4,168 nucleotides of DNA from a virus (lineage: Duplodnaviria; Heunggongvirae; Uroviricota; Caudoviricetes). The stretch lies in IMG/VR virus record IMGVR_UViG_2529293146_000007, positions 1 to 4,168 of that record; one strand, given 5' to 3'. How positions within the stretch are numbered: the stretch's first letter is position 1; each line of letters opens with the position of its first letter. This document shows, in pieces, positions 1-4,168 of the stretch. A program made the translations under genes and the position numbers. Under the pieces are notes generated by a model. The model was not told the DNA's origin. It was given only the letters and a program-made list of their open reading frames with translations, and ran no database searches.

Positions 1-1
1 C

Positions 2-112
2 ATGGAAAAGGCTTACGAAGAATACTTCGAAGGTCTTGCCGAAGGCGAAGAAGCTCTCAGCTTCAACGAATTTAAACAGGCGCTTTCCAGTTCCGCAAAA
101 TCTAACGGCTGA
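2..112 (+). CDS. Small ORF, possibly 5'-truncated by the window edge (…MEKAYEEYFEGLAEGEEALSFNEFKQALSSSAKSNG*); possibly YdfB-like
   Basis: ATG at 2-4 and an open frame to TGA at 110-112, hand-translated; it is absent from the supplied ORF track, presumably because it is short or truncated. The frame could continue upstream of the window. Same strand as the downstream operon and 30 bp from it. The YdfB assignment rests only on position in the operon and memory. Confidence 0.4.
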   Translation: MEKAYEEYFEGLAEGEEALSFNEFKQALSSSAKSNG

Positions 113-141
113 TAAGCGAAACAGCACCGCGAGGAATCAGT

Positions 142-360
142 ATGCAGAAACGAGAACCCGTCATCATCGCACAAGACTATACCGATGATGAACTTTATGA
201 GTGGATGCGCCAGAAAATTAATGCAGCGCAGGATCTGAAATGGGCCAATGAAGCCAGGGCTAAGCAGGCTGAAAATCTGTCCGCTCTGGAGCAGGATATC
301 ACCAGGCTGGAAAAAGCAGCGGCATTAAGCATTGCCAGAATGATTACATACCCACGTTAA
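142..360 (+). CDS. ydfC: YdfC-like small prophage protein, 72 aa
   Basis: ATG at 142 preceded by GAGGA (131-135) with a 6-nt spacer; stop TAA at 358-360. Length and position upstream of dicF/dicB match my recollection of Qin YdfC (72 aa); the name is from memory and synteny, not a search. Confidence 0.75.
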   Translation: MQKREPVIIAQDYTDDELYEWMRQKINAAQDLKWANEARAKQAENLSALEQDITRLEKAAALSIARMITYPR

Positions 361-382
361 TAGCTAACCAACGAGGCTAATA

Positions 383-757
383 ATGGAATTTAAAGATTTA
401 CCAATGCAATTCCAGGAAATGGCAGCGAATATAGTTCGTTCCCAACTGGCGACTCTTGACCTGAGTACCGTAGAAAAAGAAACCATCTATACTATATCCG
501 GTAACGTGCGTCGTGCCTTTATCGGTCTGTACGAAGAGAAGCAGCTCTCTGATAACCAGGATTTACATAAAAAATACTTCCTGGATCTAATGGACATCAT
601 TGATAAGGGGTTTGGCTTGTTAATGAAAAAGAAAGGGATTCGAATAGACCCCCTTGAAAATTACTTTGCAACAAAAAGCGTTAACTCCTGTGATTTAAAG
701 CATCCCGCCACAGACGGGAGTGTTACAGTTAGCCATGAGATTTCGATTAATCATTAA
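383..757 (+). CDS. Hypothetical protein, 124 aa, no recognisable motif
   Basis: ATG at 383 preceded by GAGG (373-376) with a 6-nt spacer; stop TAA at 755-757. Hand counts on two 60-nt blocks (541-600, 601-660) give about 37-38 % GC, against about 58 % in the leader block 1141-1200. I do not recall an ORF at this position in the K-12 dicB operon. Confidence 0.7.
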   Translation: MEFKDLPMQFQEMAANIVRSQLATLDLSTVEKETIYTISGNVRRAFIGLYEEKQLSDNQDLHKKYFLDLMDIIDKGFGLLMKKKGIRIDPLENYFATKSVNSCDLKHPATDGSVTVSHEISINH

Positions 758-968
758 AATCAATAGCTATTTCAATAAGTGATGCCATCTCGTTGCATTT
801 TGTTGAATTCATCTTACGTAATGAGTCACAAATATCTGATGGTTGTGATGCTGCTGGCAACTTAGCAACAAGTAGCATAATTGCTGTTTTTATAGCAGTG
901 AGTTCATCCGCAAGTCCGGCAGGAGAAACATCGTGGTTAAACTGGATATTTACATTTTTACTAGTCAT
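747..968 (-). CDS. Hypothetical protein, 73 aa (MTSKNVNIQFNHDVSPAGLADELTAIKTAIMLLVAKLPAASQPSDICDSLRKMNSTKCNEMASLIEIAIDFND), convergent with the 124-aa ORF
   Basis: Minus-strand ATG at 968-966, preceded on that strand by cAGGAtGG with a 7-nt spacer (reverse complement of 969-985); stop at 749-747. Its 3' end overlaps the 124-aa ORF by 11 bp (747-757). The track's 184-aa ORF (747-1301) is this gene plus an unsupported N-terminal read-through of the GC-rich leader. A fully overlapping + strand ORF (793-981) is an alternative. Confidence 0.45.
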   Translation of the reverse strand: MTSKNVNIQFNHDVSPAGLADELTAIKTAIMLLVAKLPAASQPSDICDSLRKMNSTKCNEMASLIEIAIDFND

Positions 969-1302
969 TTCACCATCCTGAGGGTTGGTACTTAAGGAGT
1001 TCTCCACGGGTGAGGTGGAGTGCGTGCGCCGGACACGGGTGAGCATCCGGTACTGACAGTTTACTGAAAGGATATTTCTCTGAAAAGTCAGAGCATAACG
1101 CGAAAGCGCACGGCGAGGTTGCTGGTTCATAGATAGCCTGTCGTTAAATTTTCGTCGACCGTGCGCTTCCGGTTGTGGCAATCCGCGAAATGGCGCGGCG
1201 GTAAGTATGGCGGGGTTATTCCTTCCCCGTTGAGGACACCGGGTTGTCAGGTTGACCATACGCTTAAGTGACAACCCCGCTGCAACGCCCTCTGTTATCA
1301 AT
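969..1302. promoter_or_regulatory. GC-rich structured untranslated region upstream of DicF; likely holds the promoter and 5' UTR of the minus-strand 73-aa gene and processing structures of the DicF precursor
   Basis: No credible ORF on either strand. Perfect 10-bp direct repeat cacgggtgag at 1005-1014 and 1034-1043. Perfect stems: 1029-1033/1046-1050 (ccgga/tccgg), 1104-1113/1159-1168 (aagcgcacgg/ccgtgcgctt), 1211-1215/1225-1229 (cgggg/ccccg), 1241-1249/1269-1277 (gggttgtca/tgacaaccc). Confidence 0.35.
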
Positions 1303-1355
1303 TTTCTGGTGGCGTTTAGCGGTATCAGTTTTACTCCGTGACTGCTCTGCCGCCC
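1303..1355 (+). ncRNA. dicF: DicF small regulatory RNA (Hfq-dependent sRNA known to repress ftsZ and other targets)
   Basis: The 53-nt stretch tttctggtggcgtttagcggtatcagttttactccgtgactgctctgccgccc, followed by TTTTT, matches my recollection of K-12 DicF, with an apparent difference or two in the 5' third. It sits about 170 bp upstream of dicB, as in Qin. Identification is from memory, not a covariance-model search. Confidence 0.8.
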
Positions 1356-1360
1356 TTTTT
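1319..1360 (+). terminator. Intrinsic terminator forming the DicF 3' end
   Basis: Imperfect hairpin: gcgg (1319-1322) pairs with ccgc (1350-1353) and cagt (1326-1329) with actg (1341-1344), followed by T5 at 1356-1360. Hand-folded only. Confidence 0.5.
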
Positions 1361-1364
1361 AAAG

Positions 1365-1512
1365 TGAATTTTGTGATGCGGTGAATGCGGCTAAGCGCAC
1401 GCGGAACAGTTAAAACCAAAAACAGTGTTATGGGTGGGTTCTCTGTATCCGGCGTTAATTGTTAACTGGTTAACGTCACCTGGAGGCACCAGGCACCGCA
1501 TCACAAAATTCA
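1365..1512 (+). repeat. Perfect 19-bp inverted repeat bracketing the dicF-dicB spacer: arms 1365-1383 and 1494-1512, 110-nt loop
   Basis: Left arm tgaattttgtgatgcggtg is the exact reverse complement of right arm caccgcatcacaaaattca. The right arm ends 5 nt before the dicB Shine-Dalgarno (gagga, 1518-1522). The loop contains three gttaa units (1454-1458, 1461-1465, 1469-1473) and tandem ggcacc (1485-1490, 1492-1497). Confidence 0.9.
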
Positions 1513-1529
1513 TTGTTGAGGACGCGATA

Positions 1530-1718
1530 ATGGAAACGTTATTACCAAACGTTAATACGTCTGAAGGTTGTTTTGAAATTGGTGTCACTATCAGTAACTC
1601 AGTATTTACTGAAGATGCCATTAACAAGAGAAAACAAGAAGGGGAGCTATTAAATAAAATATGCATTGTTTCAATGCTGGCTCGTTTACGTCTGATGCCA
1701 AAAGGATGTGCACAATGA
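1530..1718 (+). CDS. dicB: DicB cell-division inhibitor (MinC-dependent FtsZ-ring inhibitor), 62 aa
   Basis: Protein METLLPNVNTSEGCFEIGVTISNSVFTEDAINKRKQEGELLNKICIVSMLARLRLMPKGCAQ is near-identical to my recollection of K-12 DicB. ATG at 1530 with GAGGA (1518-1522) and a 7-nt spacer; stop TGA at 1716-1718. The track ORF 1425-1718 is an upstream in-frame extension with no supported start. Confidence 0.9.
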   Translation: METLLPNVNTSEGCFEIGVTISNSVFTEDAINKRKQEGELLNKICIVSMLARLRLMPKGCAQ

Positions 1719-1906
1719 ATTCAGCATTTGCGCTTGTTCTGACAGTTTATCTTGTTTCCGGAGAGCCAGTTGATATTGCAGTCAGTGTTCACAGGACAAT
1801 GCAGGAATGTATGACTGCAGCAACCGAACAGAAAATTCCCGGTAACTGTTACCCGGTCGATAAAGTTATTCACCAGGATAATAACGAAATCCCGGCAGGT
1901 CTTTAA
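1715..1906 (+). CDS. ydfD: YdfD-like small protein (DUF1482-type prophage protein), 63 aa
   Basis: Protein MNSAFALVLTVYLVSGEPVDIAVSVHRTMQECMTAATEQKIPGNCYPVDKVIHQDNNEIPAGL matches my recollection of K-12 YdfD. ATG at 1715-1717 overlaps the dicB stop (ATGA, 1715-1718); aagga at 1702-1706. Confidence 0.9.
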   Translation: MNSAFALVLTVYLVSGEPVDIAVSVHRTMQECMTAATEQKIPGNCYPVDKVIHQDNNEIPAGL

Positions 1907-1998
1907 AACAGTTCCGTAATAAACATCCGCTTTCATTCTTATATGCCAGCAATGGCAGGGATTTGTTCACCCTTAAATCTGTAATGAGGTAAAACAAA

Positions 1999-3003
1999 AT
2001 GAGTAAAGTCTTTATTTGCGCCGCCATTCCGGACGAACAGGCAATAAAGGAAGAAGGTGCTGTGGCTGTAGCCACAGCCATTGAAGCTGGCGACGAACGC
2101 CGTGCTCGAGCAAAATTTCACTGGCAATTCCTGGAGCATTATCCGGCTGCTCAGGACTGCGCTTATAAATTTCTTGTTTGCGAGGATAAACCTGGTATAC
2201 CCCGCCCTGCCCTCGATTCCTGGGATGCTGAATATATGCAGGAAAACCGCTGGGATGAGGATTCTGCTTCTTTTGTTCCGGTTGAGACTGAATCCGATCC
2301 GATGAACGTCACTTTTGACAAGCTGGCCCCTGAAGTACAGAACGCTGTCATGGTTAAGTTCGACACATGTGAAAACATCACCGTTGATATGGTTATTAGC
2401 GCGCAGGAATTGTTGCAGGAAGACATGGCAACATTCGACGGACATATCGTTGAAGCGTTGATGAAAATGCCAGAAGTTAACGCCATGTATCCGGAGCTTA
2501 AGTTGCATGCCATTGGGTGGGTTAAGCATAAATGTATTCCTGGTGCTAAATGGCCCGAAATTCAGGCAGAGATGCGCATCTGGAAAAAACGTCGCGAAGG
2601 TGAACGCAAGGAAACCGGAAAATACACGTCTGTTGTTGATCTCGCCCGCGCCAGAGTCAATCGACAGTACACTGAAAATTCAGCAGGAAATATCTGCCCT
2701 GTCATTGCTGTCATTCATCGCGAATACAAGCAGACATGGAAAACACTGGATGACGAACTGGCCTACGCTCTCTGGCCTGGTGATGTGGGTGCCGGAAACA
2801 TTGACGGCAGCATCCATCGCTGGGCAAAAAATGAAGTTATCGACAACGACCGCGAAGACTGGAAGCGTATCTCGGCATCGATGCGCAAACAGCCTGATGC
2901 CCTTCGCTACGACCGCCAGACTATTTTTGGCCTTGTCCGTGGGCGTCCGATCGACATTCACAAAGATCCTGTGGCACTGAACAAATATATTGCGAATACC
3001 TGA
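1999..3003 (+). CDS. ydfE: Conserved prophage protein of unknown function, 334 aa; YdfE-like by position
   Basis: Long uninterrupted ORF; ATG at 1999 with GAGG (1986-1989) and a 9-nt spacer; stop TGA at 3001-3003. It lies immediately downstream of ydfD, as ydfE does in Qin. The name is by synteny and memory only; all overlapping track ORFs are shorter and out of frame or antisense. Confidence 0.8.
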   Translation: MSKVFICAAIPDEQAIKEEGAVAVATAIEAGDERRARAKFHWQFLEHYPAAQDCAYKFLVCEDKPGIPRPALDSWDAEYMQENRWDEDSASFVPVETESDPMNVTFDKLAPEVQNAVMVKFDTCENITVDMVISAQELLQEDMATFDGHIVEALMKMPEVNAMYPELKLHAIGWVKHKCIPGAKWPEIQAEMRIWKKRREGERKETGKYTSVVDLARARVNRQYTENSAGNICPVIAVIHREYKQTWKTLDDELAYALWPGDVGAGNIDGSIHRWAKNEVIDNDREDWKRISASMRKQPDALRYDRQTIFGLVRGRPIDIHKDPVALNKYIANT

Positions 3004-3023
3004 CTACAAAGGGCGTGTTTGAG

Positions 3024-3368
3024 ATGAAGGAACAGATCTGGGCGCTGTTGATGTTCTCTCGTCGTCAGTACCAGAAACTGATGCAGTGGAAACGGGTATC
3101 TGATATCGCAAAAACTGAATGCGCGGTGGAAGTTGAACCATCTGTAGAGCGTGAGGGGCCGTTCTATTTCCTCTTCGCCGATAAGGATGGCGAAAAATAC
3201 GGTCGCGCAAACAAACTTTCTGGTCTGGATAAGGCGCTGGCTGCTGGGGCTACTGAAATCACGAAAGAAGAATATTTTGCCCGCAAAAATGGTACATACT
3301 CGGGTTTACCGCAAAATGTTGGTGCCTCTGAAGACCGCACAGCCAGAGCCGGTAAAAGTTACCGCTGA
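3024..3368 (+). CDS. Hypothetical protein, about 114 aa; C-terminal boundary doubtful
   Basis: ATG at 3024 (the track starts at GTG 3015), 21 nt after the upstream stop. The last ~25 codons overlap a stretch where frame 1 reads more protein-like, including a QPEPV motif at 3340-3354. Confidence 0.5.
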   Translation: MKEQIWALLMFSRRQYQKLMQWKRVSDIAKTECAVEVEPSVEREGPFYFLFADKDGEKYGRANKLSGLDKALAAGATEITKEEYFARKNGTYSGLPQNVGASEDRTARAGKSYR

Positions 3369-3693
3369 CGAAGTAAACAAAATTATGCAGGCAGCCAATA
3401 TCAGCCAGCCTGACGCCGATAAGTGCTTGCTGTATCACGTGGTGAATTTGTTGAAGGGATTAGTGACCCGAATGATCCGAAATGGGTTAAGGGGATCCAG
3501 ACCCGCGATTCTGTGAACCAGAACCAGCATGAATCGGAACGGAACTACCAGAAAGCGGAACAAAACAGCCAAATGCGTTACAAAACGAGCCAGAAACGAA
3601 ACAGCCTGAACCAGTGGTGCAACAGGAAGTGGAAAAATCTGCACCGCTTGCGGTCAGAGCGGTGGCGGCAACTGCCCTGATTGTGGTGCGGTG
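3289..3693 (+). other. Frame-mosaic, repeat-rich region; best guess a frameshifted or decaying gene, possibly continuous with flanking ORFs, or alternatively overlapping small genes
   Basis: By eye, the frame with common E. coli codons changes: frame 1 (about 3289-3445), frame 0 (about 3423-3560), frame 2 (about 3560-3640), then frame 1 again (3610-3918). No frame is open throughout. Each apparent junction sits at a short homopolymer (A5 3285-3289, T3 3447-3449, A4 near 3561, A5 3633-3637). Candidate standalone ORFs are frame 1 3289/3316/3385-3516 and frame 0 GTG 3423-3680, none with a good Shine-Dalgarno. Confidence 0.3.
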
Positions 3694-3918
3694 ATGGGTG
3701 ACGCAACATACCAGGAAATATTCGATGGAGAGTATCAGGTTGAAGTTCAGGAAGATGATCCGGAGGAAATGGAAGGCGCTGCGCATCCGCACAAGGAGAA
3801 CACTGGCGGCAATCAGCATCATGCTAGCGATAGTGAAACTGGCGAGGCGTCAGATCCCTTAATTAAGGTGAACGGTCATCATGATCTCACATCCACCAGC
3901 AGGGCGGTGATCATCTGA
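3694..3918 (+). CDS. Small acidic protein, 74 aa from ATG 3694; possibly the C-terminal part of a longer frameshifted protein
   Basis: Frame 1 is open from 3610 to the stop at 3916-3918 with good codon usage. The first ATG is 3694 (GTG at 3691) with a weak Shine-Dalgarno. The stop overlaps the exonuclease ATG (TGATG, 3916-3920). A CxxC-x7-CxxC motif lies in frame just upstream of the ATG (3640-3684). Confidence 0.45.
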
Positions 3919-4168
3919 TGATCGACCTTGAAACCATGGGAAAAAATCCTGATGCCCCGATTATCTCAATAGGTGCAATATTTTTCGATCCGCAAACCGG
4001 AGATATGGGACCGGAATTTAGTAAGACTATCGATCTGGAAACTGCTGGCGGAGTCATTGATCGGGACACCATTAAATGGTGGCTTAAGCAATCACGCGAA
4101 GCGCAATCTGCCATTATGACCGATGAAATCCCGTTAGATGATGCACTGTTACAATTGCGGGAATTTAT
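3918..4168 (+). CDS. DnaQ-like DEDD-family 3'-5' exonuclease, N-terminal 83 codons; 3' end outside window
   Basis: ATG at 3918, open to the window end. The N-terminus MIDLETMG carries the Exo I D-x-E motif typical of DnaQ/ExoX-type exonucleases common in lambdoid early operons. The start is coupled to the upstream stop. Confidence 0.85.
   Translation, partial: MIDLETMGKNPDAPIISIGAIFFDPQTGDMGPEFSKTIDLETAGGVIDRDTIKWWLKQSREAQSAIMTDEIPLDDALLQLREF

Follow-up and report, generated by a model that had tools for sequence, protein, structure and literature searches.

A polymorphic slot between ydfC and dicF in Qin-type prophages holds convergent small-gene pairs behind a shared structured leader

The window, by which we mean the whole stretch of 4,168 nucleotides analysed here (positions 1 to 4,168 of the IMG/VR virus record IMGVR_UViG_2529293146_000007), carries a Qin-type dicB (dicBF) operon in which ydfB, ydfC, the gene for DicF, dicB and a ydfD-like gene are collinear with their counterparts in K-12 and PEC422 (Table 1). 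Between ydfC and the dicF leader lie two convergent open reading frames, ORF124 on the operon strand and ORF73 opposite to it, both annotated at NCBI as hypothetical proteins. We note that the 5' part of DicF, which we take to be used in target pairing, differs between the window and K-12 at two positions (GGTGGCGTTTAGCGG versus GGTGACGTTTGGCGG in the alignment), and that the exonuclease gene (1999-4168) is broken over several frames (tblastn frames 1, 3, 1 and 3) where PEC422 has an intact gene of 823 aa. The break represents either a pseudogene or sequencing errors, and with its exonuclease split the prophage is probably defective.

Table 1. Features of the window in the region of the dicB operon (positions are those of the window).
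Feature	Position	Strand	Basis or remark
ydfB	2-112		ORF list
ydfC (72 aa), conserved gene upstream of the slot	142-360	+	ORF list; YdfC annotation in homologous loci
Two-gene cassette	381-983		Alignment, spacer lengths, GC
ORF124 (124 aa)	383-757	+	ORF list
Terminator-like hairpin in ORF124, 91 nt past the ORF73 stop; T-rich tail to ~622	632-655	-	
ORF73 (73 aa, ATG at 968)	747-968	-	ORF list
Overlap of the 3' ends of ORF124 and ORF73, stop codons included	747-757, 11 bp		ORF coordinates
ORF73 Shine-Dalgarno sequence (SD), CAGGATGG; 3' arm of the sequestering helix	973-980	-	RNAalifold pairing with 994-999
Anti-SD, CUCCUU, directly after hairpin 2	994-999	-	
Leader hairpin 2, CUCCAC-N7-GUGGAG	1002-1020	-	
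Leader hairpin 1, 9 bp including U-G and G-U pairs (mismatches on the + strand)	1028-1051	-	
-10-like hexamer TAAACT, 6 nt upstream of hairpin 1	1058-1063	-	Candidate minus-gene promoter
DicF sRNA gene	1304-1355	+	Rfam RF00039, 68.6 bits
dicB (62 aa)	1529-1718	+	ORF list; dicB annotation in homologous loci
ydfD-like gene	1715-1906		ORF list; exonuclease gene comes next

A three-way alignment with K-12 and PEC422 defines 603 bp of 39% GC (381-983, boundaries within 2 bp) that are missing from the Qin prophage of K-12, with flanks that are nearly identical in K-12 MG1655 and PEC422; from the ydfC stop to the start of dicF there are 943 bp in the window as compared to 340 bp in MG1655. A sequence-only reading of this locus had proposed about 600 bp of DNA additional to K-12 that encode two convergent frames of 124 and 73 aa with an 11-bp overlap, and the breakpoints and coordinates bear this out, although the K-12 spacer, which it had called short, is in fact 340 bp. 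It had also described the extra DNA as markedly AT-rich. With respect to the adjacent leader this holds, with somewhat different figures: positions 361-968 have 39.0% GC (rather than 37-38%) and the leader has 53.8% over 986-1303 and 56% over 1100-1300 (rather than about 58%). The break in composition is one with the non-coding leader and not with the operon overall, however, because dicB-ydfD is equally AT-rich at 39.7% (ydfB-ydfC has 47.5%). No direct or inverted repeats were found to flank the 603 bp, and a cassette of the integron or transposon type was rejected, there being no terminal repeats and a structured element on one side only.

What lies between ydfC and the dicF leader varies: this polymorphic slot is found empty, with a plus-strand gene only or with a convergent pair. 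Among 5426 complete E. coli genomes ydfC is present in 3083 (4301 places) and the dicF leader in 4326 (9017 places), while a DNA match to ORF124, covering at least its start, is found in 1447 (1705 places) and one to ORF73 in 88 (90 places). Partial matches to ORF124 fall into classes that break off 44, 135-150, 182 or about 340 nt into the query, and inspection of one locus per class revealed different alleles in the slot (Table 2). At least seven unrelated convergent pairs occupy the slot, with 3' overlaps of 11 bp in the pair of the window and 17-41 bp in the other types, and with minus-strand genes of 73/74, 91, 92, 77, 69/63 and 96 aa, those of 69/63, 74 and 96 aa having been added by a scan of viral contigs. 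The pair found in O157 and other Shiga-toxin-producing strains (STEC) is complete in 646 of the 5426 genomes (12%), mostly of Shiga-toxin-producing serogroups. In a sample of IMG/VR loci the empty allele is the commonest (61 of 121) and 42 of 45 plus genes have a minus partner, the three that do not all bearing the tail allele '..KVESNNKISINH'; in an even sampling of the ranking of matching E. coli genomes, about one third have a type-A plus gene without any minus gene. The singular insertion that had been envisaged here must accordingly be given up. It had been offered on the understanding that such frames would not prove ordinary in homologous operons, and this holds only by half, because roughly 40% of ydfC loci (1705 of 4301 places) have a relative of the plus gene after ydfC, K-12 representing the empty allele.

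Table 2. Alleles of the slot at inspected loci.
Allele	Plus gene	Minus gene	Overlap
Window, PEC422	124 aa	73 aa	11 bp
E01	106 aa	91 aa	23 bp
118UI	133 aa	92 aa	41 bp
O157, O145, UMNK88	135 aa	77 aa	23 bp
Strain 9000	124 aa	None	
K-12	None	None	

The plus proteins are modular. ORF124 matches phrog_6937 along its full length, and its N-terminus also matches phrog_1363, phrog_2151, phrog_9419 and phrog_33007, so that the first 55 residues or so are common to five PHROG families; residues 56-91 are specific to type A, and the tail (92-124) is predicted to be disordered. Downstream of the shared N-terminal part the plus proteins differ in sequence by type, and some of their C-terminal modules stand alone at the same position as proteins of 57-63 aa or 119 aa. 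Across different backbones the C-terminal part follows the type of the minus gene. For instance, minus genes of 69/63 aa accompany a common '..SELEK.NIKPT..' module on both a 119-aa and a 201-aa protein, and ORF73-type genes accompany tails in '..ISINH' or '..ISVNHHD' on two unrelated plus proteins. This association would fit either a functional pairing or the plain linkage of adjacent, overlapping DNA. The family of ORF124 is narrow, 1.84 billion proteins yielding just 31 clusters at 50% identity, and its alleles have dN/dS values of 0.23-0.41 (0.26 in the predicted disordered tail, at a dS of about 1).

ORF124 is also a site of IS1 insertion. It is split at two sites by IS1 (at 1582-2349 in locus L009 and at 1795-2640 in locus L013); IS1B lies at the point corresponding to window positions 607-616 in at least nine genomes, several of which are known ETEC strains, and IS1A lies within ORF124 in three further genomes. 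In at least 12 genomes ORF73 is undamaged beside an IS1-disrupted ORF124. A preference of IS1 for AT-rich targets or selection against ORF124 could each account for such insertions.

The ORF listing allows the minus-strand frame to extend to a TTG at 1301 (184 aa). We regard the ATG at 968 as the real start because the 73-aa form is annotated by NCBI in PEC422 and has an SD upstream, and because unrelated minus genes elsewhere begin at the equivalent point behind the same leader. ORF73 matches phrog_7249, with a conserved VSPAG motif and the conserved cysteines C47 and C58, and has homologues in E. coli and Salmonella whose dN/dS is 0.12-0.15 (dS 0.26 within E. coli and 1.46 versus Salmonella). 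Judged by these substitution ratios, all well below 1, ORF124 and ORF73 are genuine genes under purifying selection. AlphaFold2 models give three helices each, at residues 8-23, 32-53 and 59-83 in ORF124 (pLDDT 66; pLDDT 68 for ORF73), and the predicted folds would be generic helical ones. The sequence-only reading recognised neither protein, and the databases agree: sequence searches of Pfam, NCBIfam, PADLOC and the PDB returned no match for ORF124, ORF73 or eight other slot proteins, the defence models of PADLOC-DB 2.0 gave nothing below E = 0.01 against the ten, and no known toxin or antitoxin family in Pfam, NCBIfam or PADLOC matched ORF124 or ORF73 at threshold. On inspection neither sequence has an obvious hydrophobic membrane segment, and the AlphaFold2 helices are short. 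Among the minus proteins the 73-aa and 74-aa types are the sole ones to align (32% identity), and pairwise BLASTP of four of them found no similarity. In two E. coli proteins (P0126 and P0127) minus-strand sequence from the dicB-dicF side is fused to the last 24 residues of ORF73, which suggests variants in which a deletion has taken the leader together with the first two-thirds of ORF73.

Upstream of every minus gene lies the same leader (about 973-1063 in the window), and K-12 keeps it. From 18 distinct leaders RNAalifold gives three helices, namely two hairpins and an anti-SD:SD helix, the same as were drawn by eye. In this set, which has limited sequence variation and was collected with a pattern derived from hairpin 1, 93.4% of cells pair as compared to 35-52% when the 3' partners are slid. 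Compensatory changes occur in four leader pairs, one of them within the anti-SD:SD helix; in hairpin 2 they affect three of the six pairs (e.g., UUCCCAAC/GUUGGGAA in Salmonella). The CUCC of the anti-SD is invariant, and the adjoining pair changes from U-A to A-U in 5 of the 18 leaders. Two further comparisons point to the minus strand as the one that folds: it folds better than its shuffles (z = -2.1, versus -0.1 for the plus strand), and it has 42 G-U cells versus 7, with a paired fraction of 93.4% versus 84.1%. Most likely, then, this is a promoter-proximal 5' leader of the minus genes that controls their ribosome-binding site. It is possible that the leader also has a role on the sense transcript of the operon, since it is kept in K-12 without a minus gene and 84% of cells pair on the plus strand. 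No Rfam family was found for the leader; only DicF reached the gathering score, and over 700-1320 nothing credible appeared at E <= 10.

Several details of the leader deserve mention. The SD of ORF73 is CAGGATGG in the window and CAGGAGGG in most alleles; with GGATGG in place of the usual GGAGGG, the SD is weaker, and so is the top pair of the helix that sequesters it. A 10-nt direct repeat, CACGGGTGAG, at 1005-1014 and 1034-1043 comprises the loop and one arm of both hairpins, and on the plus strand it prompted consideration of an antitermination site of the nut or put kind, which was set aside in view of the better folding of the minus strand. Read on the minus strand, the loops are UCACCC, the complement of which, GGGUGA, lies between the SD and the AUG; the loops resemble the 3' end of 16S rRNA. 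A kissing interaction of UCACCC with GGGUGA covaries between E. coli and locus L012 and does not hold for the leaders of Salmonella and of type E.

The sequence-only reading had the minus gene facing the operon with a promoter of its own, and a conserved SD and leader of its own have now been found for it. About five of six unrelated upstream contexts have a T-A-rich hexamer, often with TGn, 6-7 nt ahead of hairpin 1, although the TAAACT of the window falls below threshold in a simple sigma-70 scan. At the other end, a terminator consensus scan found 2 sites as compared to 1.4 expected, which is weak alone; the unrelated 91-aa minus gene has the same hairpin as that at 632-655, 25 nt beyond its stop. 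The hairpin sits in coding sequence and could be of chance origin. On the plus strand, the consensus scan found no terminator between ORF124 and dicF.

The arrangement is not confined to one prophage backbone. In ST95-type strains ydfB and ydfC are missing and the cassette directly follows ydfA, the homology beginning exactly at the ORF124 start codon. The ST95-type prophage of locus L013 additionally has a relBE toxin-antitoxin pair (587-1065) between the repressor gene and ydfA, and a truncated dicB beside a Rha gene and kil. Salmonella relatives of ORF73 reside in a prophage of the Cox/HTH/integrase kind that has a C4 RNA and lacks DicF; there they run against the early operon, share 17-20 bp with an early gene and follow the same type of leader, and one of them (P0130) partners an unrelated 111-aa protein. 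In the Salmonella element of locus L010 the C4-type antisense RNA lies at 1900-1987 (Rfam, 71.8 bits), and genes for Ash and a Derepression domain represent a P1/P4-like immunity module; the element is integrated beside pheA. Compared locus by locus, these arrangements show that the cassette or its minus half moves between prophage backbones, a mobility that the sequence-only reading had raised as a matter for alignment. The leader itself goes further. A scan of genome contigs with a 16-base leader pattern was dominated by chance matches in GC-rich genomes, and its only real hit was a locus of Edwardsiella ictaluri (L089) where the leader (2808-2824, minus strand) is followed by an SD and a 30-aa ORF, with the hexamer at the same distance, CUCCAUU...AAUGGAG retained and further compensatory changes. 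It is intergenic there, beside an apparently divergent ORF and outside any dicB or Cox operon, so the leader travels beyond the Escherichia/Salmonella prophage context.

This leads us to propose, at about even odds (a probability of roughly 0.5), that positions 381-983, one allele of the slot, are a moron-like accessory module of two antisense-coupled convergent genes. The slot lies in the early operon that DicA represses in Qin-type prophages, and as we picture it ORF124 would be read within the ydfABC-dicF-dicB transcript upon derepression. ORF73 would form a separate unit, presumably transcribed from the weak -10-type promoter at about 1058-1063, with a 5' leader in which two hairpins are followed by an anti-SD that would hide the SD, and with a transcript that probably ends at the hairpin inside ORF124. 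In K-12, DicF is processed out of one long dicBp transcript (PMC10448788). Given such a transcript, and with no plus-strand terminator found between ORF124 and dicF, transcription of the operon must cross the whole minus unit, so that any transcript of the minus unit will be complementary to the operon RNA over at least 300 nt. The operon RNA and the ORF73 RNA might then work against each other, through transcriptional collision and the formation of a duplex. From such mutual antagonism it would follow that the repressed prophage makes ORF73 and that induction turns it off, and its transcription may damp leak-through toward the toxic dicF-dicB genes. As for targets, we can only guess at a prophage-versus-phage or host-takeover function.

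The same observations invite other accounts. The main one, possible though in our view doubtful, is that each pair consists of cognate proteins of a toxin/immunity-like or effector/inhibitor-like kind, with the C-terminal part of the plus protein and the minus gene swapped as one cassette, and with the minus protein neutralising or recognising the variable C-terminal part as in polymorphic toxin systems. This would explain why a given C-terminal part and a given type of minus gene go together across different backbones, why stand-alone C-terminal modules without the shared N-terminus still accompany minus genes, and why nearly all plus genes of the IMG/VR sample (42 of 45) have a partner. Adjacency and 3' overlap alone would produce the same linkage, however, and the pairing is loose: the type-A plus gene often lacks a minus gene (in about one third of matching E. 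coli genomes), ORF73 stays intact beside an IS1-disrupted ORF124 in at least 12 genomes, and its Salmonella relative P0130 stands beside an unrelated protein. The genes, moreover, are convergent and not co-transcribed, and show no similarity to toxin, antitoxin or defence families. An obligate toxin-antitoxin pair is disfavoured by the existence of the plus gene without ORF73 and the persistence of ORF73 next to disrupted copies of ORF124; as compared to type II toxin-antitoxin systems, the genes are convergent, do not co-occur obligately and have no homology to known families. Of the moron-type accessory module in the sequence-only reading, then, the moron-like part is favoured, the DNA being absent from K-12 at the same position, and an obligate toxin-antitoxin pair is unlikely, the genes being separable. 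The transcriptional-interference or antisense effect that it had suggested would be plausible. One might go further and suppose, which we think unlikely, that the slot holds cognate two-protein modules (e.g., an effector tail expressed by the phage and a partner expressed in the lysogen, acting in superinfection or defence) that are exchanged as cassettes of a C-terminal part plus an antisense gene, behind a leader with a gated ribosome-binding site common to Qin-type and Salmonella Cox-type prophages.

Alternatively, the functional product of the minus strand might be an RNA, or the act of transcription, gating read-through to dicF-dicB with the peptides as incidental cargo. The leader is indeed conserved in front of mutually unrelated frames, and the layout is always convergent with the operon, yet we consider this improbable: the low dN/dS of ORF73 (0.12-0.15, at dS up to 1.46 versus Salmonella) points to a selected protein, the strong conserved SD and its controlling helix point to regulated translation, and the leader occurs without a minus ORF in K-12 and most IMG/VR loci, from which it follows that a gate would need no cassette. 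The most sceptical account, in which the frames are non-functional mosaic debris left by phage recombination and called genes by annotation pipelines, could draw on annotations that all read 'hypothetical protein', on the narrow family and on a degraded-looking prophage with a frameshifted exonuclease gene. We hold it to be very improbable indeed, in view of purifying selection on both ORF124 and ORF73, of an architecture that recurs in seven sequence-unrelated pairs and on two prophage backbones, and of an O157-type pair kept in 646 genomes.

The moron-like module that we favour has partial counterparts elsewhere. Like phage morons, extra genes of lambdoid prophages with a promoter and terminator of their own such as lambda bor and lom, it is present or absent at the same position among close relatives, is AT-richer than the adjacent leader, though not than dicB-ydfD, and has a candidate promoter and terminator of its own within a repressed operon; unlike them, it is a convergent two-gene unit with one gene part of the host operon, and its promoter and leader lie outside the extra DNA, in DNA common to the empty allele. 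Another partial parallel is sieB of Rac, which we take to be a counter-oriented gene inside the early-left operon beside kilR. Both are opposite-strand genes in an early operon that also holds a cell-division inhibitor, but ORF73 has no sequence similarity to SieB, a larger membrane protein, and on inspection no obvious membrane segment. Lambda OOP RNA with cII, and the type I toxin-antitoxin loci txpA/RatA and bsrG/SR4 of Bacillus prophages, are likewise convergent units with overlapping 3' ends, in which the sense-antisense duplex is open to cutting by RNase III. In the slot, by contrast, both partners encode selected proteins, no small hydrophobic toxin is evident, and the operon RNA would be antisense to the whole minus mRNA and not just to its 3' end. 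With the polymorphic toxin and immunity cassettes of CdiA-CT/CdiI and Rhs the slot shares a conserved N-terminal part and a variable C-terminal part swapped with an adjacent small gene, whereas its proteins are tiny (57-201 aa) and without a secretion or toxin domain, the partner is convergent and the pairing is not obligate. It resembles the cargo hotspots of P2 and P4 prophages, which hold variable defence genes, in its fixed conserved flanks, its many unrelated cargo alleles and its common empty allele, and differs from them in having much smaller cargo without a PADLOC match and in lying inside an early operon behind a structured leader.

What is new here is a recurrent convergent architecture with a shared structured leader, in the light of which the 600-bp 'insertion' is an ordinary allele of a widespread slot. 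Those of the papers searched that mention ydfC together with prophage, or with dicF and dicB, regard this part of K-12 as untranslated, and neither cassette nor leader is described in them; a literature search on antisense start sites near ydfC found nothing usable. The dicBF operon has been studied almost entirely in K-12, that is, in the empty allele. About 40% of ydfC loci hold an extra early gene, and at many of them a gene read in the opposite direction separates the promoter from the toxic dicF-dicB genes. Transcription of the minus unit, should it take place, must alter the DicF and DicB output of a derepressed prophage, an output that bears on cell division, on phage resistance and on the DicF-dependent control of virulence in EHEC. 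The conserved leader and its many unrelated small cargo genes also offer an easy way in to new small prophage proteins, both to find them and to test them. Should the slot hold cognate modules after all, it would represent a previously undescribed hotspot system in the commonest prophage operon of E. coli, that of O157/STEC included.
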